DNA of 64,000 bases, taken from sequence record OP870147.1, one strand, 5' to 3'. Below the pieces are notes generated by a model. The model ran no database searches. It saw nothing but the letters and a program-made list of their open reading frames with translations, and was not told the origin of the DNA. Below are positions 26,662-60,644 of the stretch, piece by piece. The position numbers and the translations under genes are program-made. How positions within the stretch are numbered: the first letter of the stretch is position 1; every line of letters starts with the position of its first letter. This DNA is from Escherichia phage vB_Eco_F31.

Positions 26662-27243
26662 TTATAACAACCCTGTCAAATCGTTCCAATGCTTCCGGCA
26701 TAATGACACATATCTATCGGTATCACCAATTTCAATTTGACTGCCATCTGTAATTGGAAGTCCGTCTTCCGTGACTCTAGCTACCATTGTGGCCTTTTTA
26801 CCACAATGACAGACACCTTTAAGTTCAACAAGCTTATCGGCAATAGCCATTAATGCTTGAGAACCTTCAAATAGATTACCTTTAAAATCTGTTCGTAGTC
26901 CATATGCCATTACCGGCACATTGTATACGTCAACAATACGACTAAGTTGATACACCTTTTCAGTAGTTAAGAACTGAGCTTCATCAACAAATACACAGTG
27001 AATATCCTTTTGTGCTGCAGCCCATTTATAGAATTCAAAGATATCCATGTCTTTTGTAATTATATTGGCGTCCTGTCGAATACCAATACGAGAGACTATT
27101 TCACCTTTTGAATCGCGAGTATCAATAGCCGGTTTAAGAACTAATACACCCATGCCACGTTCTTTATAGTTATGTGCGGCAGTAAGTAATGAAGCAGACT
27201 TACCAGCGTTCATAGCGGCATAGGTAAAAATTAAACTAGCCAT
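26662..27243 (-). CDS. tk: thymidine kinase
   Basis: Walker A AAMNAGKS; C-terminal zinc site CHCGKK...CRKH. Confidence 0.95.
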   Translation of the reverse strand: MASLIFTYAAMNAGKSASLLTAAHNYKERGMGVLVLKPAIDTRDSKGEIVSRIGIRQDANIITKDMDIFEFYKWAAAQKDIHCVFVDEAQFLTTEKVYQLSRIVDVYNVPVMAYGLRTDFKGNLFEGSQALMAIADKLVELKGVCHCGKKATMVARVTEDGLPITDGSQIEIGDTDRYVSLCRKHWNDLTGLL

Positions 27244-33274: not shown

Positions 33275-33556
33275 CTATTTTTCTGAAGCGCCTGAAATAT
33301 ATTTTTCAAGACGTTGTTTCATTAGCGAGCCGTTCTTAGCGATTTCTTCTGGTTTATCGCACATACGCAACAAGGCTTCAAGCTTAGCGATATCGCTGGT
33401 ACGTTCAAATTTGCGAGTATCTATCTTACTAGCAAGTTCAGAAATACGTGCTAATAGACTTTCGGCTTCAACCAAAGCTGCACCTAGCTTAGTTGCAAAT
33501 GTGTCAGTAGCTTCGTTAAGAATAGATTCTGATAAAAATTCACTATATGTTTTCAT
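33275..33556 (-). CDS. internal protein (capsid-targeted)
   Basis: [13 protein letters not shown] from internal ATG. Confidence 0.7.
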
Positions 33557-34534: not shown

Positions 34535-34775
34535 CTCGGTCCCATGATTTGGCCATTAATTCGGACATAAATTCTTCAATGCGCGTTTCTTTAGATGGAC
34601 TTTCACTATTAGAGACCGCAAGTTTGTAATCTGCAATAGGACAGAACATATCAAGGTCCATATTAAGGTCGTCTTTGATTTTTTCTTCTGACACATCTTT
34701 ATCGTATGTGTACAGATAACTATCACATGATTCTGATTTAATGTAAATTGCTATACTCATCTCAAATTCCTGCAT
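34524..34775 (-). CDS. hypothetical protein
   Basis: 83-aa acidic ORF; probable start at ATG overlapping upstream stop. Confidence 0.5.
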   Translation of the reverse strand: MQEFEMSIAIYIKSESCDSYLYTYDKDVSEEKIKDDLNMDLDMFCPIADYKLAVSNSESPSKETRIEEFMSELMAKSWDRDDE

Positions 34776-35248
34776 TCGGTAATAAAACGTTCAACTTCAT
34801 TATTCTTGGCCTTTATCTTGTCTTTACGTTCCTGTAAACTACTTTTAACAAGATTAATAATGATGCCTACAGTACCGCCGCCAATGATGCCGCCAACAAC
34901 ACTTATGATAATAGATGCTAATAAGATAGCAATAATATCAACAAAACCGAAAGAACTCACCTTAGTACTAAAAAACCATACCGACGGTACAAATATAATC
35001 CATCCTGTTATCCATTGGCACTTATTGAAAAACTTTTCAAGCTCAGCTTGAGTTGTTCGTATTACTTCATCGATAGGTTGATATCCATTAATGTATCTGT
35101 TCACGATAATACCTGCTGGCTGGTCGATTTTAAATTCTTGGCAAATATGTTTCACTAAGTAGGATGGACATCCTGTCCAATCTACTGAATAGTACGAAAT
35201 ACCTTCATTGCCGTCGTCAATATTAGACCAATATGTTTTGTTAATCAT
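34757..35248 (-). CDS. hypothetical membrane protein, C-terminal ERFITECR module
   Basis: Hydrophobic helices; C-terminus shares xFIxECR motif with four other ORFs. Confidence 0.55.
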   Translation of the reverse strand: MINKTYWSNIDDGNEGISYYSVDWTGCPSYLVKHICQEFKIDQPAGIIVNRYINGYQPIDEVIRTTQAELEKFFNKCQWITGWIIFVPSVWFFSTKVSSFGFVDIIAILLASIIISVVGGIIGGGTVGIIINLVKSSLQERKDKIKAKNNEVERFITECRNLR

Positions 35249-35934
35249 TACCAGCCTTCCATAGGGAATTCCAGATAAACTTGGGCATTGACACGAATTT
35301 CATTGGTAATCTTTTTAACTCGGTCTGTATTACGAGATACACGTCCGAACCAACGCCATCCGTTACTAATTGCACGAGAACCAGTGTGCCATGTTTGCCA
35401 ATCAAACTGAAGAAGAGTACGATCTGGAGCTTCCCATTTCTCTAGTTCACCTTTTTCAATTTTTTCGAGGACTTCTTTGTGCCACTGGCGATAGATAAGT
35501 TCGCCATCAGGAATCTGACTGAACTCTGCAGTTCCTGTTGCAAAATGAGTAGGACACACGTCAGCGTTAACAAGACCAAGAATATGTTCAGAATGGTAAC
35601 GAGGGTTGTCATAGTCAGGTTGTCCTGCAGTAATAAAGTGTTGACCAACTGGAATATCAGGGCGAGGAACATCGTCATGGTGGTATCCAGGAATAGCAGG
35701 ATACCAACCAGGCATCAGCATATGGACTCGTGAATCAAATACAACATGTTGATTAGTCCAATCAATTGGGAGATTGGCAATAAAGCTACGAGTGATTGAG
35801 CCACCATTATCCCAAGCAAAACCCAAATCACAATTAAAGAACATTGGTTCATTTTTGATTCGGTCATTTTGTACGTTATGTGCAAAACTACCAACTGCAC
35901 GAGCTTGACTATTAAAAGTTTTAGAACTATTCAT
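35248..35934 (-). CDS. hypothetical protein (His/Asp-rich, possible metal binding)
   Basis: 228 aa, PGYHHDD and YHSEH clusters; not assigned. Confidence 0.55.
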   Translation of the reverse strand: MNSSKTFNSQARAVGSFAHNVQNDRIKNEPMFFNCDLGFAWDNGGSITRSFIANLPIDWTNQHVVFDSRVHMLMPGWYPAIPGYHHDDVPRPDIPVGQHFITAGQPDYDNPRYHSEHILGLVNADVCPTHFATGTAEFSQIPDGELIYRQWHKEVLEKIEKGELEKWEAPDRTLLQFDWQTWHTGSRAISNGWRWFGRVSRNTDRVKKITNEIRVNAQVYLEFPMEGW

Positions 35935-35935
35935 A

Positions 35936-36241
35936 TTATTTTCCTCGACATTCTTTAATGAAATTTTCTAGATTGGTAGATTCAATAGCTTTTTTACGAG
36001 CTTCTGCATGTTCTTCTTCAGACAATTTACATTTATAATTAACCCAGACATTATGGTCGAAACTAGTCGTGGCATATAATAACAATGCTCCAACGAATAG
36101 CAAAAACGGCGATAAGAATACAAAACCAGGAACACCATCCATATCGTAAGCCTTTTGTAATACTGCAACAGAAAGAGCTGCGTAAAAAGGTGATGCAAAT
36201 ATTGTTAAAAGACCAATTCGGTTGGTTTCGCCTAATTTCAT
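35936..36241 (-). CDS. hypothetical membrane protein, C-terminal ENFIKECR module
   Basis: Two hydrophobic helices; C-terminus LENFIKECRGK. Confidence 0.5.
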   Translation of the reverse strand: MKLGETNRIGLLTIFASPFYAALSVAVLQKAYDMDGVPGFVFLSPFLLFVGALLLYATTSFDHNVWVNYKCKLSEEEHAEARKKAIESTNLENFIKECRGK

Positions 36242-36269
36242 AATATTCTCCTCATGTTTTAATAGGACT

Positions 36270-36298
36270 ACTATAATATAGCCCTATCAGTTTGTACA
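36270..36298 (-). promoter_or_regulatory. early promoter / stem-loop cassette
   Basis: TGTACA-N17-TATAGT; TAGGACT/AGCCCTA brackets the -10. Confidence 0.55.
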
Positions 36299-36299
36299 C

Positions 36300-36500
36300 T
36301 TATTTTGACATTTCTTCGATGTCACGACGATACCCATCACGAACTTCACGAAGAGCTTCAAGGCCACACATAGGCTCGATACCAGTAATGTGAACTTGAT
36401 TAATCTGATACTCTACATCTTCTAACTGAGCGAAAACATAACGACGTTCTGCTGCACAACCAGGTTTAGCTTTACCGAAACGTTTATTCAAAGTAGTCAT
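36300..36500 (-). CDS. hypothetical protein
   Basis: Start placed at ATG 36500 (MTTLNKRF...). Confidence 0.5.
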   Translation of the reverse strand: MTTLNKRFGKAKPGCAAERRYVFAQLEDVEYQINQVHITGIEPMCGLEALREVRDGYRRDIEEMSK

Positions 36501-36538
36501 TTTTATATCTCCATTCACTCATTTGTTTTGATAGGTCT

Positions 36539-36567
36539 ATAGTATCAACAACTACAGACCTTGTAAA
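36539..36567 (-). promoter_or_regulatory. early promoter / stem-loop cassette
   Basis: TTTACA-N17-TACTAT; AGGTCT/AGACCT brackets the -10. Confidence 0.6.
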
Positions 36568-36580
36568 CTGTTTTGTGAAA

Positions 36581-37537
36581 TTATTTGAAAGGTTTTACCA
36601 TATGAAAGTTTTGTTTGAAACGCTTGACGTAATCGTCGTGTCCTAAGCTTTGGTACATACTTACTACTTTGCTATAATTTTCCCAAGCGAACTCACGGAA
36701 CCATCCTGATGTGATTGATGTACAGACCTTTTCAAGGGCCATCATAAAACTATCACGTGGATGGATTTTAAAGTCGTTAGGAATCTGTGAACGTTCAAGA
36801 GCTAATACACAAGCTTCTTCATATACACCGGCTAATTTAACCATTTCTGGTAACGATTCGAACTTCTCGCGTGAGGTCATGACTTCAGAACCGTCTTTCA
36901 TATAAAACTTATAAGCAGGCTGGTCAGTTAGTGCAATGGCTTCATGGATAGTATCATGGTCATACGTATAGATGTCATCTTTAAAGAACGCACTTTTAGA
37001 AGTGTCAAGAACTGGGTGAGCATAATTCAAGGTTTCTTTCTGGCGTTTCAGCATAATTTCAGTAAGTTCATCGTTCAGTGTAACACCTTTACCACGAAGA
37101 TACTGAATATGGTTCATAGTCTTTAAAAAGAATGGATTATTTTTCTTGAAACGATGAGACATCTTAATTGCAAGACATATCTCAGGAGTTGCCCAGTAAA
37201 ACCCGTTCAAACGGTCTTTAGTCAAATTTTTCTTGGAGTATTTTAAAAGGTCATAAGAAGACGTGAAATCTTCAGGAGTGAGTTCACCGACTAGTTCGCG
37301 AACGTTAGTGATAGCCGGAACGATGTATGCTTCAAAATGAGTTTCGCGTCCATTATGGAAGCATTTGAAAACTTGGACATCAGGGTTATCTTGGTGAACA
37401 TATACACCCATCATTTGATTTTTGAATGCATTCCAAGAACCTTGGTCCGCAATAAAGTCCCAGTCACTATTTTTAATAGCGCTAGAATCAATAAGACCGT
37501 GATAGTGAAGTGCACGAGAACCAATAACTAACATCAT
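36581..37537 (-). CDS. hypothetical protein
   Basis: 318-aa ORF, no motif recognised. Confidence 0.6.
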   Translation of the reverse strand: MMLVIGSRALHYHGLIDSSAIKNSDWDFIADQGSWNAFKNQMMGVYVHQDNPDVQVFKCFHNGRETHFEAYIVPAITNVRELVGELTPEDFTSSYDLLKYSKKNLTKDRLNGFYWATPEICLAIKMSHRFKKNNPFFLKTMNHIQYLRGKGVTLNDELTEIMLKRQKETLNYAHPVLDTSKSAFFKDDIYTYDHDTIHEAIALTDQPAYKFYMKDGSEVMTSREKFESLPEMVKLAGVYEEACVLALERSQIPNDFKIHPRDSFMMALEKVCTSITSGWFREFAWENYSKVVSMYQSLGHDDYVKRFKQNFHMVKPFK

Positions 37538-37565
37538 AATATTTTCCTCGGATTAATTCATTAAC

Positions 37566-37817
37566 TTAAATTTCACGACATGCGATATTATATTCATCCC
37601 AGAGGTCATCATGTGAAGCCTCTACCAATGGAACGATTGTACCGTTTATGTCTTCATTATAAGGGCAAATTGTACAGTGCGCATCTTCGAATCGGATGCC
37701 TTTGTGTTCAGATTTTTTATAACGCATATCGAATATCTTTGCAAACTTTTCACGAGTAATGGTTTTACCAACCACTTTGGTTCCGATACTTTCGTAATAA
37801 ATCATTGTGGACTCCAT
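37566..37817 (-). CDS. hypothetical protein
   Basis: 83-aa ORF. Confidence 0.5.
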   Translation of the reverse strand: MESTMIYYESIGTKVVGKTITREKFAKIFDMRYKKSEHKGIRFEDAHCTICPYNEDINGTIVPLVEASHDDLWDEYNIACREI

Positions 37818-37833
37818 TTGTTTTGATAGGACT

Positions 37834-37862
37834 ACTATAACATAGCCCTATCTTGTTGTAAA
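37834..37862 (-). promoter_or_regulatory. early promoter / stem-loop cassette
   Basis: TTTACA-N17-TATAGT; GATAGGACT/AGCCCTATC brackets the -10. Confidence 0.6.
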
Positions 37863-37867
37863 CTGTT

Positions 37868-38065
37868 TTAGCAAGAATAACTAGATGATACCCAGCCTTG
37901 AACAGTGATATTATTGTGGGATAATGAGATCGCGTCCTGGAGATTCAGACCTGCGTTATCTTCAATCCATAATGTAACTTCTTCGCGTTCTTCTGTTGCA
38001 ATTTGGAACAGGTTTTCCAGAGCAGCTACTGCCGTACGTACAGCACAATCTAATTCACGAGACAT
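37868..38065 (-). CDS. hypothetical protein, GWVSSS-C family
   Basis: C-terminus QGWVSSSYSC shared with two upstream paralogs. Confidence 0.55.
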   Translation of the reverse strand: MSRELDCAVRTAVAALENLFQIATEEREEVTLWIEDNAGLNLQDAISLSHNNITVQGWVSSSYSC

Positions 38066-38074
38066 ATTGTTTCC

Positions 38075-38347
38075 TTAGCAAGTGTGAGAAGATGCGACCC
38101 AACCACCGGTTTCGAGGCTCAGGTTGTAGTCGTATTGGTAAACGTCAGCCCATTCAGCATAGCCGTTTTTTGTACAACGTTCAAGATCGGCTTTAAGATG
38201 TCCGGGTGAATGATAGGTTCCACCCATACCATAAGCTGGGTACAAGTTGAATGTTGTGTTTTGTTTATCAGCAATTTCTTTGGCAGCCTCAATAGCTGCA
38301 TAGATTTTTGCTACAGCTTCAGCCAGTTCGGTTTGTTCTTTAGACAT
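38075..38347 (-). CDS. hypothetical protein, GWVSSS-C family
   Basis: C-terminus GGWVASSHTC. Confidence 0.55.
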   Translation of the reverse strand: MSKEQTELAEAVAKIYAAIEAAKEIADKQNTTFNLYPAYGMGGTYHSPGHLKADLERCTKNGYAEWADVYQYDYNLSLETGGWVASSHTC

Positions 38348-38356
38348 AATGATTCC

Positions 38357-38662
38357 TTAGCACAACGCAGAAGACGAAACCCAAGCACCTTCAGTAATAA
38401 CGTATCCATTACCTTCACGCTTAACATCGCCGCCATTATTTTCAATTTCATCTTTCATCCACTGGGATACGATTTCACCCTTAGGATAATAAGTACGACC
38501 GCTACCATAATCACCTACAGAAAATGATACGGCATATTGGTCTGCGATCTTTGTTGCTTCTTCTTCGATACGTTCAGCTTGATTCAGAAGTTTATAAATT
38601 GCATCTGAAGCGGATTTGGCATCATTAAACTCTGGTACTTTAATTTCAATAATCTTACTCAT
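38357..38662 (-). CDS. hypothetical protein, GWVSSS-C family
   Basis: C-terminus GAWVSSSALC. Confidence 0.55.
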   Translation of the reverse strand: MSKIIEIKVPEFNDAKSASDAIYKLLNQAERIEEEATKIADQYAVSFSVGDYGSGRTYYPKGEIVSQWMKDEIENNGGDVKREGNGYVITEGAWVSSSALC

Positions 38663-39018
38663 TTTCTACATTCCTTAATAAAGTTTTCGATTGTTTCATT
38701 TTCACGTTTAGCTAGGAGTTCATTATAACTAATCATTTGAGAAGCGTAAACCTTTTTATTTTTCTTGTTATGGTTTATAAAATCGTAGTAAAAATAGACT
38801 ACAGTACAAAAGGATGCGATAGATGCAAAGGCTTGGGTATACCGTAAGTCCTGCCATTGGTCTGTGAATCCACCAGTGTTACCTATAAATCCTAACACAA
38901 CTCCGTCAATAAGAAATCCAACTAATCCAAAGGCAAATCCCATGCCAATACTCATAATAAAAATTAGAATGTTCTCACCAAGAGAAGGCCATACGGTTAA
39001 GAGTTGAGGCTTTTGCAT
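38659..39018 (-). CDS. hypothetical membrane protein, C-terminal ENFIKECR module
   Basis: Hydrophobic helices; C-terminus IENFIKECRK. Confidence 0.5.
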   Translation of the reverse strand: MQKPQLLTVWPSLGENILIFIMSIGMGFAFGLVGFLIDGVVLGFIGNTGGFTDQWQDLRYTQAFASIASFCTVVYFYYDFINHNKKNKKVYASQMISYNELLAKRENETIENFIKECRK

Positions 39019-39422
39019 CTTATTTCCTTAACGAATTCCATAGCTTCTTCATATTCATACTTTTTAACAGCTTCATCATACTGAGCTTGGGCTTTTGCGC
39101 ACTGAACTTTCCACTCACGAACTCGAGCTCTGTGATGACGGCCTTGGTGCCAATATCCTGCCCAATTAATAGGCATTAATAAAAACGGTACAATAAGTGG
39201 TGCGACGAACATTAATGAAAACGCTGCATCAGACGATATAACTTTATTGGAATCTAAAACAGCTCCTATAATCATAAAGATTAAAAATGCTAAAGCTAAA
39301 ATAGGACCAAATAGTACTTCGTTTGGGATTAATTTACGTTTGTATTCGTATGCCCAGGGCTTAATTGGCATGTACAGGGTTGGCTTTGACATATTCTCTA
39401 CATTCCATAATAAATTGCTCAA
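38997..39422 (-). CDS. hypothetical membrane protein
   Basis: Hydrophobic helices; C-terminus EFVKEIRCK variant; start uncertain. Confidence 0.5.
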   Translation of the reverse strand: MSNLLWNVENMSKPTLYMPIKPWAYEYKRKLIPNEVLFGPILALAFLIFMIIGAVLDSNKVISSDAAFSLMFVAPLIVPFLLMPINWAGYWHQGRHHRARVREWKVQCAKAQAQYDEAVKKYEYEEAMEFVKEIRCKSLNS

Positions 39423-39984
39423 GGATTAAATTGTTAGTGAAATTAGGACTAACAACCATAGTTTCATAAAGCGCATCAATAGCACTTAAAGCATCAACTC
39501 TCTTAAGCAAAGGCTTGCCTTCATACATAGTTTCAGAATCGACGATTAAAGTGAAGTAGTATTTTTTATTATTGACCAGAACTTCTGTATCAATATAAAA
39601 CATGTTAGACCTCAGAAGCTTATCTCTAAAACCATAATAATCTTCAGAGCGTTCGCTGATATATTCCCATTCGGTGTTTAAACAACAAACAGACCACGTA
39701 GGAGCAACGAAATCAGTGAATCTAATATCATGGTCTGCAACTAGTTTAGCAATAGCTCCGATATCATGAATCATAATACCTGGGGCTAATAAAGATTTTC
39801 TGCTATGGCTAGCCGTTTTCTCGGTGGTCTCATAAGAAGACGACCAGTACCATTTACGTCCAGTTGCAACATATCGTAATGAATCAACTAAAGACGTAGG
39901 TGGATTTACCTTATCTCGGAACTCTTCGAACATTGAGTCAATATCATTATTTTGGTTTCGCATGTTAACTCCTTTATTATCCAA
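39361..39984 (-). CDS. hypothetical protein
   Basis: 207 aa; near-C-terminal EQFIMECREY; start uncertain. Confidence 0.5.
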   Translation of the reverse strand: MDNKGVNMRNQNNDIDSMFEEFRDKVNPPTSLVDSLRYVATGRKWYWSSSYETTEKTASHSRKSLLAPGIMIHDIGAIAKLVADHDIRFTDFVAPTWSVCCLNTEWEYISERSEDYYGFRDKLLRSNMFYIDTEVLVNNKKYYFTLIVDSETMYEGKPLLKRVDALSAIDALYETMVVSPNFTNNLILEQFIMECREYVKANPVHAN

Positions 39985-40012
39985 AAGGAGGACCGGAGTC
40001 CTCCGTATTATT

Positions 40013-40606
40013 TTATTTCAAAGAGTTAATATATTCTTGTACATCAGCAGAAGTGGTTTCGACACCAGCTGGAGTGCCATTGAACGTTTCAACACGAGTT
40101 AGAGTGTCTTCGATATCAACCTTAGTCAGTGCAGCGATTTCAATTACATCATCGGCCGTAGAGATACCAAGGGCATTAGCTGCTCGAGTTTCACGAATGT
40201 ATTCGAGTTTGATTGCCAGATTCTGCCGAGCATCATCAAGTTCAACCACCTTACGAGCAATTTCAATTCGCATAGCGGCATACCCGTCAGCTTTTGTATT
40301 AAGTTGTTCGGCAGTTCGACGATACAGAAGACCAAGCTTAGCATGCATAGTAACATCTTGTCCTTCGGCCAGGAGCTTACGAATTTCACGTTCCTTAGAA
40401 GCGGCTTGCTTGTTCTTTTCATTAACAAGTTCGCGAATACGTTTTTCTTCATTAATAGATTTAACAGAAGCCGTTTTTAGTTCTTTGATTTGGGTAATCA
40501 ACTTATCTGCAGCTGCGTTATACTGTTCTTCGACAGTCAGATTTTTAGCCATAGCAGTACCCAGTTTAGTGCGGATGAATTCAACAAGTTTCTTCAGTGT
40601 GTTCAT
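40013..40606 (-). CDS. hypothetical coiled-coil protein
   Basis: Start placed at ATG 40606 ([10 protein letters not shown]...). Confidence 0.55.
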
Positions 40607-46330: not shown

Positions 46331-46912
46331 ACGCAAGGAAGGGTGTCTAGAAATGGATTTAGATTCGGCGGCCTGACGTGGTTGTTGAGATACAATGACT
46401 TCGCCATCTTTTTCTATCGTCATATACGCATAGTGAATAGTTGCTACGCACGTAACGGCAGGGTCAGAGTCTTCAGTGTAACTAAATTCAATTTCACTCA
46501 AATCAGAAATCCATGGTTTATAGAAATTTGCCGTCAAAACTACTTCAGTCTTATTGTTGTTTAAAATGTGCAAAGTAACAAACTCAGGACCATCGGAGTG
46601 GGCCGTATTATGTCCGGTTATATAGTTATTAGTGCTGAGCATCCATTTATACATGTTCATCCAGGACGTCATGTCTTCATCAACTATAAATCGTACAATA
46701 AAAGGGTCATATTCAAATGTGGTGCCTGCACGCATTGCACGCCCTAGCCCCATTGTGCCTGTCACCGTTTCAACAACAGGAATTCTCACACCTGGCAGTG
46801 GAGCCGTTTGGGCGTTGAGCACAAAACCTGAAGTTCGTGTACTATCCGGGATATCCACAACAAAGTTTGTTATATTTGTTTGGTTAAAAATCTGTCTCGT
46901 TGGACGAGTCAT
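46328..46912 (-). CDS. 3: tail completion / sheath stabiliser gp3 (by synteny)
   Basis: Start placed at ATG 46912; position between gene 2 and gene 1. Confidence 0.7.
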   Translation of the reverse strand: MTRPTRQIFNQTNITNFVVDIPDSTRTSGFVLNAQTAPLPGVRIPVVETVTGTMGLGRAMRAGTTFEYDPFIVRFIVDEDMTSWMNMYKWMLSTNNYITGHNTAHSDGPEFVTLHILNNNKTEVVLTANFYKPWISDLSEIEFSYTEDSDPAVTCVATIHYAYMTIEKDGEVIVSQQPRQAAESKSISRHPSLR

Positions 46913-58839: not shown

Positions 58840-60644
58840 TGAAACAAAATATTAAAATTGGTAACGTCGTTGATGACGGACAAGGCGATTACCTTCGTCG
58901 AGGTGGTGAAAAAATAAATGAGAACTTTGACGAAATCTATTATGAATTAGGTGATGGTGAAGTTCCTTACGCCGCTGGTGCGTGGAAGACTTATGATGCG
59001 GCTGATGGTCTTAATCTTAAGGCCGCTTGGGGTAAATCTTATGCAATTAATACTACTTCTGGACGAGTTTCGGTAAATCTTCCTAAAGGGACAATTGCAG
59101 ACTATAATAAAGTTATTCGTGCTCGTGACGTATTTGCAACTTGGAACATTAACCCTGTTACTTTAATTCCGGCAAACGGAGATACGATTAAAGGTTCTTC
59201 ATCTCCGGTAGAAATTAACGTTCAGTTCTCTGATTTAGAATTAGTTTATTGTGCTCCTGGACGTTGGGAATACATCAAGAACAAACAAATTGATAAAATA
59301 GTTAGCTCTGACATTAGTAATGTTGCTCGTAGAGAATATCTGGTTGAAACCCAAGGTCAGACCGATTTCATGGATGTTTTTAACGGGACCTCTTATAATG
59401 TTAACAACATTCGCGTAAAACATCGTGGCAACGAATTGTACTATGGTGATGTATTCAGTGATAATAGTGATTTTGGTTCTCCAGGCGCTAATCCTGGTGA
59501 ACTGGTTGCACTCGATGGATTTAATATTAGATTACGCCAACCGTGTAATGTTGGGGACACTGTACAAATTGAGACATTCCTAGATGGTGTTTCTCAGTGG
59601 CGTAGTTCATATACTCGTCGCCAAGTTCGCATTTTAGATAGTAAATTGACTGCTAAAAAGTCTATTGACGGAAGTATTTACGTCACTGATTTGAGTACGT
59701 TCCGGTCTATTCCATTTACAGCATTTGGTATTAATCCTACGGAACCACCTAACCCGAATTCGTTAGAAGTTCGCTTCAATGGTATTCTCCAAGAATTAGC
59801 TGGTACTGTTGGAACTCCTATTTTCCGTTGTGAAGGTGTGGATGCTGATTCTGAAGAGTCATGCGCTAATCTCGGTGGGACGTGGACTCAATCGTATACA
59901 GATTATGCGATTGAATATACTGATAATATCCCTAGCGCAATTCTGTTTGACCGTCAATTTGAAGACCAAGACATTATTACCATCACATGGTTTAATAACG
60001 ATTTAGGAACTCTTCTTGAAATGGAAGAAATCCTTGATGTCGCTGATGAGAAATATGTTTCTCAAGGGTCTAACATTGAAATTACTGGTGACGTTGCATT
60101 AACCGATTTCGATAAAATTGGATGGCCTAATGTAGAACCTGTTCCTAAGTATGAACGTGAATTCTCGACTATCTCGGCAATATTTGATACAATTTATCCT
60201 GTCGGGACTATTTACGAAAATGCGGTTAACCCTAATAATCCGGCAACTTATTTAGGTTTTGGTTTGTGGAAAATTTGGGGACAAGGCAAAGTATTAGCAG
60301 GTTGGAATGACGACGCGTCGGATCCTAATTTTGCATTAAATAATAATGACCTTGACGTCAATGGTAACCCTACTCATACCGCAGGTGGTACCGTTGGTGT
60401 AACAACCGTCACATTAGAAAATGCTGATTTACCGGCTACACAAACCGATGAAAAGGTTCTTATTTCTGATGATAATGGTACAGTAATTATAGGCGGTTGC
60501 CAATATGACCCGGATGAAGAAGGTCCTATTTACACTAAATATCGTGAAGACCATGCAAAGACTAACGGATCTCATGTTCCAGCGCGTTCTATAACTAATA
60601 TTCAGCCATCTATAACTGTATACCGTTGGGTAAGGATTGCATAA
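58839..60644 (+). CDS. 10: baseplate wedge / tail pin gp10
   Basis: 601 aa, T4 order and size. Confidence 0.85.

Follow-up and report, generated by a model that had tools for sequence, protein, structure and literature searches.

Five open reading frames (ORFs) in a 64,000 nucleotide stretch of the Escherichia phage vB_Eco_F31 genome (OP870147.1; the whole stretch is referred to below as the window) encode proteins that end in related peptides. In all five ORFs, designated here A to E and located on the minus strand, the sequence F-[I/V]-x-x-[C/I]-R is found 1-11 residues before the stop codon. This motif is a C-terminal helix selected at the level of the protein; it occurs several times per genome, is carried by at least two unrelated scaffolds and lies in one variable interval of Tevenvirinae genomes. 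A preliminary description of the same DNA had listed the five tails, which were found exactly as given there. The starts that it assigned to ORF D (TTG, 39422) and ORF E (39984) have been revised: most likely these genes begin at ATG 39392 and ATG 39963, matching the annotation of phage mobillu. The carriers are the following:

34757..35248, minus strand: ORF A, 163 aa, homologue of T4 e.2 (phrog_2203, 3e-55), tail VERFITECRNLR
35936..36241, minus strand: ORF B, 101 aa, phrog_9798, RB69-type and without T4 counterpart, tail LENFIKECRGK
38659..39018, minus strand: ORF C, 119 aa, homologue of T4 e.3 (36% identity; phrog_2330), tail IENFIKECRK
38997..39392, minus strand: ORF D, 131 aa from ATG 39392, homologue of T4 e.4 (54% identity; phrog_2604), tail MEFVKEIRCKSLNS
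39361..39963, minus strand: ORF E, 200 aa from ATG 39963, homologue of T4 e.5 (47% identity; phrog_2607), tail LEQFIMECREYVKANPVHAN

ORFs C, D and E match their T4 counterparts over the full length, and the order e.6-e.5-e.4-e.3 is identical in T4 and in the window, in agreement with the ATK47 annotation. ORF A has the W..LDD..G...VDW.GC domain, the membrane region and the tail of the e.2 family, with invariant columns common to 18 relatives. It consists of a soluble N-terminal domain of roughly 70 aa, a hydrophobic membrane region and a charged helix ending in FITECRNLR. By a simple hydropathy window, which was used for all transmembrane (TM) calls, its membrane region gives two overlapping windows above threshold, that is, one clear segment. 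ORF B has two TM segments followed by a charged helix, ORF C is a membrane protein with one clear TM segment, and ORF D has two TM segments and ends in FVKEIRCKSLNS, a variant in which Ile replaces Cys. ORF E is a soluble alpha/beta protein without any hydrophobic segment, and its FIMECR sequence lies in the last predicted helix. The TM helices mentioned in the preliminary description are thus present in A, B, C and D and absent from E. In phage mobillu the homologue of ORF A (2258-2750, corresponding to window positions 34757-35248) is annotated as two overlapping coding sequences, each called 'putative membrane protein', which points to either a frameshift in that record or a gene split by annotation; the window copy is intact.

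The 6.7 kb around the tails matches Escherichia phage vB_EcoM_MM02 with 98.5% identity and many further RB69-like phages of the genus Mosigvirus (family Straboviridae, subfamily Tevenvirinae) with 97-98%. By nucleotide identity, the window belongs to an RB69-like (Mosigvirus) T4-type phage.

To define the motif, 34 instances were compared, namely the five window ORFs and about thirty from seven other motif-bearing phages. They can be described as φ-x-x-F-[I/V]-x-x-C-R-(basic), with a hydrophobic residue (φ) at position -3 and K, R or G at +6. The information content was 1.1 bits for the hydrophobic residue at -3, 4.3 for F (position 0), 2.7 for I/V (+1), 4.6 for C (+4) and 4.1 for R (+5), values that are partly circular, the instances having been gathered by a loose pattern. 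Glu is frequent at -2 and at +3 (16/34), and +6 is basic or Gly. The six-frame translation of the 64 kb has four matches to F[IV]x[ED]CR, one each in A, B, C and E, always within 11 residues of the stop. The raw count of the looser F[IV]..CR is ordinary (1.7 expected by composition); what is unusual is the placement. Four of the 198 ORFs of at least 50 aa in the six frames have this pattern in their last 24 residues, with about 0.05 expected (an estimate from the per-position frequency), and these four are real genes, all inside 5.2 kb. The tripeptide ECR was not found in the other long ORFs of the window.

Some further matches were not accepted as instances. The C-terminal YVSLCRKHW of thymidine kinase (window 26695-26712, minus strand; T4 59799-59816) fits the loose pattern and was taken as a conserved part of the enzyme that resembles the motif by chance. 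A plus-strand match at 46517-46534 was also rejected, as was one at 27176-27193, which lies in a frame of nine codons. An 83-aa ORF at 37566-37817 (minus strand) ends in LWDEYNIACREI, with C-R after a hydrophobic residue at a similar position; it was excluded from the count of instances. Its tail might be related to the motif in degenerate form or, as the ORF also contains HCTICP, belong to a Cys-rich metal site. In PEi20, the matching portion of the interval holds an ORF of comparable length that ends in NTYCQEI.

The module is kept at the amino acid level in related phages. The T4 homologues, with overall identities of only 36% (e.3), 54% (e.4) and 47% (e.5), end in EFVIDCRKIK, KFVKESRCKSQS and EKFVKECREYVKAITIPSK. 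Six-frame translation of the whole T4 genome gave three strict F[IV]..CR matches, which lie in e.3, in e.5 and in what is left of e.2 (53 codons). For a wider comparison, the neighbourhood of e.6 was taken from seven further genera, the loci being drawn from INPHARED phage records:

SP18 (Gaprivervirus): 5 copies
PEi20 (Kanagawavirus): 5 copies
Mineola (Jiaodavirus): 5 copies
AS6 (Karamvirus): 6 copies
fHe-Yen9-01 (Tegunavirus): 3 copies
Aeromonas phage AS-gz (Tulanevirus): 1 copy
GAP161 (Pseudotevenvirus): 0 copies, e.6 present

Besides T4, six of the sampled Tevenvirinae genera thus have the motif. SP18, PEi20, Mineola, AS6, fHe-Yen9-01 and Tequatrovirus each carry 3-6 copies per genome, and in the six sampled genera every copy lies between e.6 and nudE. 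None was found in the 7 kb upstream of e.6 in nine loci. As a check free of the loose pattern, a profile hidden Markov model (HMM) built from nothing but the five window tails was run against 2,507 stop-to-stop ORFs (whole T4 and seven other loci); all six of its best matches were genuine tails at C-termini encoded between e.6 and nudE in T4, AS6 and SP18.

The e.5 family gives the clearest picture of what is conserved. In seven sequences at 15-47% identity, the sole invariant columns are M1, N96, F184, C188 and R189. A HMMER search with e.5 in 1.84 billion cluster representatives returned 22 clusters, and F[IV]xxC[R/K] is kept in 13 of 13 full-length members newly retrieved. In roughly 70 distinct tails, which include near-identical cluster variants, the x positions vary, F is replaced by L once and R by K once. 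Other searches added little diversity: an IMG/VR scan with e.5 found six loci, all close relatives, and word-indexed protein searches mostly matched close relatives.

In the reference T4 sequence (NC_000866) the e.2 gene (67484-67960) is annotated as a truncated product of 102 aa without the motif. Compared with other Tequatroviruses it has lost one nucleotide from an A-run and gained one about 78 nt later, and the segment between these two indels makes correct sense in a different frame; the tail NNFITECRKLK is intact in the 53-codon leftover ORF abutting nudE. The truncation is either a lesion of the laboratory strain or the result of old sequencing errors.

The carriers had been regarded as a family of small membrane proteins. 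This description is not supported: the five window proteins belong to five different PHROGs, and the profile similarity between the membrane groups collapses without the tail. In pairwise BLAST, seven of the ten carrier pairs are similar in their last 9-32 residues only. In hhalign comparisons of eleven membrane groups, whose alignments are shallow (1-9 sequences per group), probabilities reached 93% with the tail and did not exceed 18% once the tail (from -4 to the end) had been removed. Moreover, hydrophobic segments are lacking in ORF E and in at least six further carriers; the soluble carriers comprise the e.5 family and, in other genera, several proteins 93-135 aa long. The motif is therefore found on two classes of protein, the soluble e.5 family and a set of small proteins of the inner membrane that evolve fast and have one or two TM segments (e.2, e.3, e.4, the RB69-type B and others), and the soluble carriers are clearly built on another scaffold than the membrane carriers.

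It is nevertheless conceivable that all carriers descend from one ancestor and that the tail is simply its slowest part, with an intramolecular role (stability, insertion or topology, packing in cis) and no partner. The membrane carriers share one architecture, and weak BLAST links (E = 1e-3 to 1e-4 over 80-130 aa) connect e.2, e.3, e.4 and other membrane carriers; SP18 e.4 matches e.3 with E = 4e-4, AS6 ORFs weakly match B and e.2, and ORF B matches the e.2 PHROG with E = 0.002. In addition, e.3 and e.4 have a common M-x-[K/R]-P-x-L N-terminus and each overlaps the tail upstream, and the annotation of one database protein combines the Pfam models of e.4 and e.2. These links suggest that the membrane carriers may be very diverged paralogues. 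However, the same motif stands on the unrelated alpha/beta domain of soluble e.5, no pair of groups exceeds the 18% figure after trimming, and a topology signal would need no invariant F...CR. Taking both sides into account, descent of all carriers from a single ancestor, with the tail acting within the molecule, appears rather unlikely.

The junctions with the next genes were analysed in the same five ORFs. As had been noted in the preliminary description, the motif codons in the window supply the Shine-Dalgarno (SD) sequence of the next gene or overlap its start:

34769..34786, minus strand: ORF A motif codons, TTT ATT ACC GAA TGC AGG; SD AGGAA starts in the Arg codon, and the next ATG (34760-34758) overlaps the stop (ATGA), AGG AAT TTG AG-ATG-A
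35945..35962, minus strand: ORF B motif codons, TTC ATT AAA GAA TGT CGA; SD GAGGAAAA extends across the Arg and Gly codons, next ATG at 35934, CGA GGA AAA TAA T ATG
38665..38682, minus strand: ORF C motif codons, TTT ATT AAG GAA TGT AGA; SD AAGGAA is the K-E codon pair, next ATG at 38662 (ATGA overlap), AAG GAA TGT AGA AA-ATG-A
39018..39035, minus strand: ORF D motif codons, TTC GTT AAG GAA ATA AGA; the e.3 start codon (39018-39016) overlaps the Arg codon, AAG GAA ATA AG-ATG-C
39397..39414, minus strand: ORF E motif codons, TTT ATT ATG GAA TGT AGA; the e.4 ATG (39392) is 4 nt past the Arg codon and e.5 runs 11 codons further, AGA GAA T-ATG-TC

The codons themselves vary while the peptide is kept, so nucleotide identity does not account for the motif. 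Over the 34 instances, F is encoded by TTT (21) and TTC (11), Cys by TGT (12) and TGC (14), and Arg by AGA (12), AGG (5), CGA (5), CGT (6) and CGC (4), i.e. 17 AGR and 15 CGN codons. Even the e.2 orthologues by themselves use three Arg codons, AGG, CGT and CGA.

The tails had also been interpreted as a reused coding and junction module, and it could be argued that the motif bases are short direct repeats at cassette borders, used for in-frame swaps, so that the peptide merely marks this history. The interval is hyperplastic, its gene content between e.6 and nudE is different in every genus examined, and the carriers are unrelated outside the tail. One 22-nt direct-repeat family (77-91% identity) unites the tails of A, C and E, and e.4 and e.3 are alike both in the tail and in the M-x-[K/R]-P-x-L start. 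On the DNA level, however, junction similarity is confined to the 18-22 motif-coding bases: in 93-nt junction segments (z = 2-4) it ends at the motif codons, the flanks are unlike, and B falls outside the repeat family. Moreover, codons differ between genera while the peptide is kept, and an unselected scar would decay. Recombination may account for the spread of the tag but not for its persistence, and as an explanation of the motif a recombination junction seems unlikely. The tag has probably spread by junction-preserving duplication or recombination, which is plausible because of the tandem e.5-e.4-e.3 arrangement, and it is kept by selection on the peptide.

We also considered a C-terminal turnover or regulatory tag, either a degron for a protease or adaptor or a nascent peptide that pauses the ribosome at the junction. 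In every carrier the motif stands at the C-terminus or close to it, mostly just upstream of the next start, in an interval where early-type promoter-like sites precede several genes. The distances are, however, variable (0 to 15 codons to the stop and -2 to 103 nt to the next start), which is ill-suited to positional stalling, and to our knowledge the motif is unlike the known degron and arrest-peptide classes (ssrA, MuA, SecM, TnaC). Such a function is quite improbable.

The relation to the next start was followed over all instances. In 29 of 34 the start is -2 to +14 nt from the Arg codon, although two of the automatically assigned -2 starts are doubtful GTGs and the annotated starts there are about 22-24 nt away. 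In the other five, including the Aeromonas e.5, no start is nearer than 37 nt (37-103 nt). The SD is found in two registers: in the first it coincides with the x-x codons (AAGGAR, encoding K-E), in the second with Arg and the next codon (CGAGG, AGAGG, AGGAA). There is thus no fixed register to the downstream AUG and no conservation at the nucleotide level that would indicate a ribosome-binding site (RBS) or translational coupling as the conserved element. Four other, equally tight junctions of the same window stretch lack the motif, with tails such as SSALC, EGW and RDDE. The synonymous codon variety, the instances without a nearby start and the two SD registers therefore point to a constraint on the protein. 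Selection thus acts on the peptide and not on the DNA.

It follows that a by-product of translation initiation, in which the peptide would be nothing but what a T4 ribosome-binding region encodes in the upstream frame, is hardly credible: the proximity of the next start in most instances, the use of K-E (AAGGAA(G)) as SD in e.3, e.4 and SP18 with CGAGG, AGAGG or AGGAA elsewhere, and the position of the e.5 motif, which follows the start of e.4 and not the stop of e.5 itself, speak for a nucleotide constraint, but this is contradicted by the mixed CGN and AGR codons, the use of both Cys codons, the two registers, the five instances remote from a start, the tight junctions without motif and the several hundred annotated T4 genes, many tightly packed, at whose ends the motif appears nowhere else. 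The overlap with the RBS is real but secondary and follows from the tight gene packing of T4 and the C-terminal position of the motif. It makes the motif a clean case of a coding motif that coexists with the RBS of the next gene, useful for the study of dual constraints in compact phage genomes.

The spacing of the conserved residues is helical: positions -3, 0, +1 and +4 fall on one face of an alpha-helix, and the mean hydrophobic moment is 0.52. An AlphaFold2 (AF2) model of e.5 from 26 sequences (pLDDT 62, pTM 0.64) predicts an alpha/beta domain whose last helix (residues 179-194) contains the motif. A Foldseek search of the PDB with this model gave no match with TM-score above 0.29 or E below 0.01. 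In the AF2 model of ORF A, which with a pTM of 0.29 is informative for helix continuity only, TM2 runs on as one helix through the motif to residue 161. The membrane carriers follow the order TM segment, short loop, TM segment, basic stretch, charged helix and motif. In nearly all of them the last 30-35 residues are rich in K/R, and under the positive-inside rule this composition suggests that the tails are cytoplasmic. In this respect the module behaves as the conserved cytoplasmic tail that had been offered as one interpretation in the preliminary description.

On balance we think it probable that the motif is a portable cytoplasmic docking or assembly tag, an amphipathic helix appended to otherwise unrelated early proteins that would share one common partner. 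In the membrane carriers the motif closes a long charged helix running on from the last TM segment. The face formed by F, I/V and C, with the adjacent Arg, would then make up a portable docking or assembly surface, and this surface would bind all carriers to one partner on the inner membrane, at its cytoplasmic side. The carriers themselves might be this partner, e.g. e.5 tethered by the membrane carriers, or it might be a shared phage or host factor. The presence of the motif on several co-expressed proteins is what suggests a common partner, and since an invariant hydrophobic face with Arg stands at the end of a stalk or in the last helix, a binding surface is the simplest reading.

Several observations weigh against this proposal. 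The common partner is inferred from sequence. The Aeromonas phages carry the e.5-type copy only; therefore, pairing between carriers cannot be what the motif does everywhere. The e.4 subfamily, like one other group, has I, V, S or M instead of Cys, which shows that Cys-specific chemistry is not essential. The AF2 models are of low confidence (pLDDT about 62; pTM 0.64 and 0.29), and the predicted helix may be exposed or packed in cis. Finally, the alignments behind the hhalign comparison are shallow and small membrane proteins diverge fast, so that a common ancestry of which only the tail survives could lie behind the apparent lack of relationship.

An essential chemistry specific to the Cys, for example in a rhodanese-like C-R-x-G loop, was rejected: the Cys is changed to I/V/S in e.4, and the protein ends too soon after it. 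Several phage records label genes of the e.3/e.4 region 'sulfurtransferase', and an e.4 homologue on a 508-bp contig is deposited as 'sulfurtransferase [Xanthomonas pisi DSM 18956]'. The latter looks like phage contamination of a bacterial assembly, combined with a propagated name that has no visible basis.

The gene map of the region was based on annotated relatives and on T4 itself. All genes of the motif-bearing stretch are on the minus strand. In the direction of transcription, e.6 is followed by a hairpin, e.5 (ORF E), e.4 (ORF D), e.3 (ORF C) and three small paralogues; then come RB69-type ORFs with early-promoter cassettes between them, ORF B and a 228-aa ORF, and finally ORF A (the e.2 homologue), a 78-aa ORF, nudE and lysozyme e. 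The two features at the upstream end are:

40013..40606, minus strand: e.6 homologue, a context gene
39987..40004, minus strand: terminator-like hairpin between e.6 and e.5, a perfect 7-bp GC-rich stem followed by a T-run

A promoter scan found no promoter-like site directly 3' of the hairpin; the e.5-e.4-e.3 block presumably depends on read-through or on a promoter type outside the scan. In all motif-bearing phages examined, e.6 directly precedes a soluble motif carrier, which is an e.5-family protein in seven phages and a 93-aa protein in fHe-Yen9-01. GAP161 has e.6 without any carrier, therefore the link to e.6 is weak. From its sequence e.6 was suspected to be PspA-like, which was not supported by Pfam and PDB searches.

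Farther downstream, intergenic cassettes are present at 36217-36305, 36520-36539 and 37781-37869, comprising two 89-nt copies (71% identity) and a 20-nt core (95%). Each contains, immediately before a small ORF, a promoter-like site of the T4 early type (TTTACA/TGTACA-N17-TATAGT/TACTAT).

The three tandem paralogues that follow e.3 (37868-38065, 38075-38347 and 38357-38662, minus strand) end in G-x-W-V-[S/A]-S-S-x-x-C, with Cys as the last residue. Twenty such ORFs were counted in six genera (five each in SP18 and PEi20, four in fHe-Yen9-01, three in the window, two in AS6 and one in AS-gz). Almost all of them lie among the FIxxCR carriers; the AS-gz copy is upstream of e.6. The sole family match is with phrog_899, in its C-terminal part. 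It is unusual for a terminal Cys to be conserved.

About half of the T4 genes have no known function, and the e.2-e.8 block is among the least understood. The motif turns unrelated 'hypothetical proteins' of this block into one testable group. If it is only a structural remnant, the gain will be a modest improvement of annotation. Searches of Pfam, NCBIfam, PADLOC and PDB sequences with the carriers and e.6 gave nothing above curated cut-offs, only weak chance matches. Database clusters of e.4, e.2 and e.5 carry the Pfam entries PF26873, PF26896 and PF26876, which were not among the matches in the Pfam scan of the window proteins. The e.2-e.5 proteins are catalogued as separate families, and the motif that links them, and that also joins B and families of other genera, is captured by none of these families. 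No description of the cross-family motif was found in the searchable literature, whose coverage was incomplete, and an earlier description is possible.

Three known systems resemble the motif in some respects. ATGA-type translational coupling is suggested by the overlap of A, C, D and E with the next gene and by motif codons that hold the SD and, in D, the start as well. Such coupling is generic, however, and imposes no particular peptide, and other tight junctions do without the motif. Promoter-early stem-loop (PeSL) cassettes are promoter-terminator DNA elements that are reported to mediate modular shuffling in T4-type phages (PMC2839356, PMC4122927). PeSLs are likewise short conserved sequences at gene borders in hyperplastic T4-like regions, and similar promoter cassettes occur in the present interval; but whereas PeSLs are presumably non-coding and conserved in nucleotide sequence, the window motif lies inside coding sequence and is conserved in amino acids, with free synonymous change, DNA similarity limited to 18-22 nt and codons that vary between genera.

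The third system is the capsid-targeting sequence (CTS), an N-terminal peptide that directs proteins into the capsid and is cleaved by the prohead protease at an L/I-x-E site. Like the CTS (MKTYQEFIAE-type), the window motif is a terminal peptide of roughly ten residues on unrelated proteins of hypervariable T4-type loci, a portable address, and the CTS core E-F-I-x-E resembles the E-x-F-I-x-E part of the C-terminal motif. An internal-head-protein-like gene with a CTS-type N-terminus (core E-F-[I/L]-x-E) adjoins lysozyme e in the window (33275-33556, minus strand). The window motif differs from the CTS in being C-terminal (34/34), in having an invariant C-R, with Glu at +3 in 16 of 34 instances, and in standing on membrane and cytosolic early proteins. 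By analogy, and with considerable reserve, the motif might be regarded as an address tag, a C-terminal counterpart of the CTS by which early proteins of a changing set, namely soluble e.5 and interchangeable small membrane proteins, would connect to a single hub at the inner membrane. For a gene newly arrived in the e.6-nudE interval, acquisition of the tag would then be the way to become functional. If this were true, the single hub would account for an entire block of T4 'ORFans', and the tag would offer a means of finding it.

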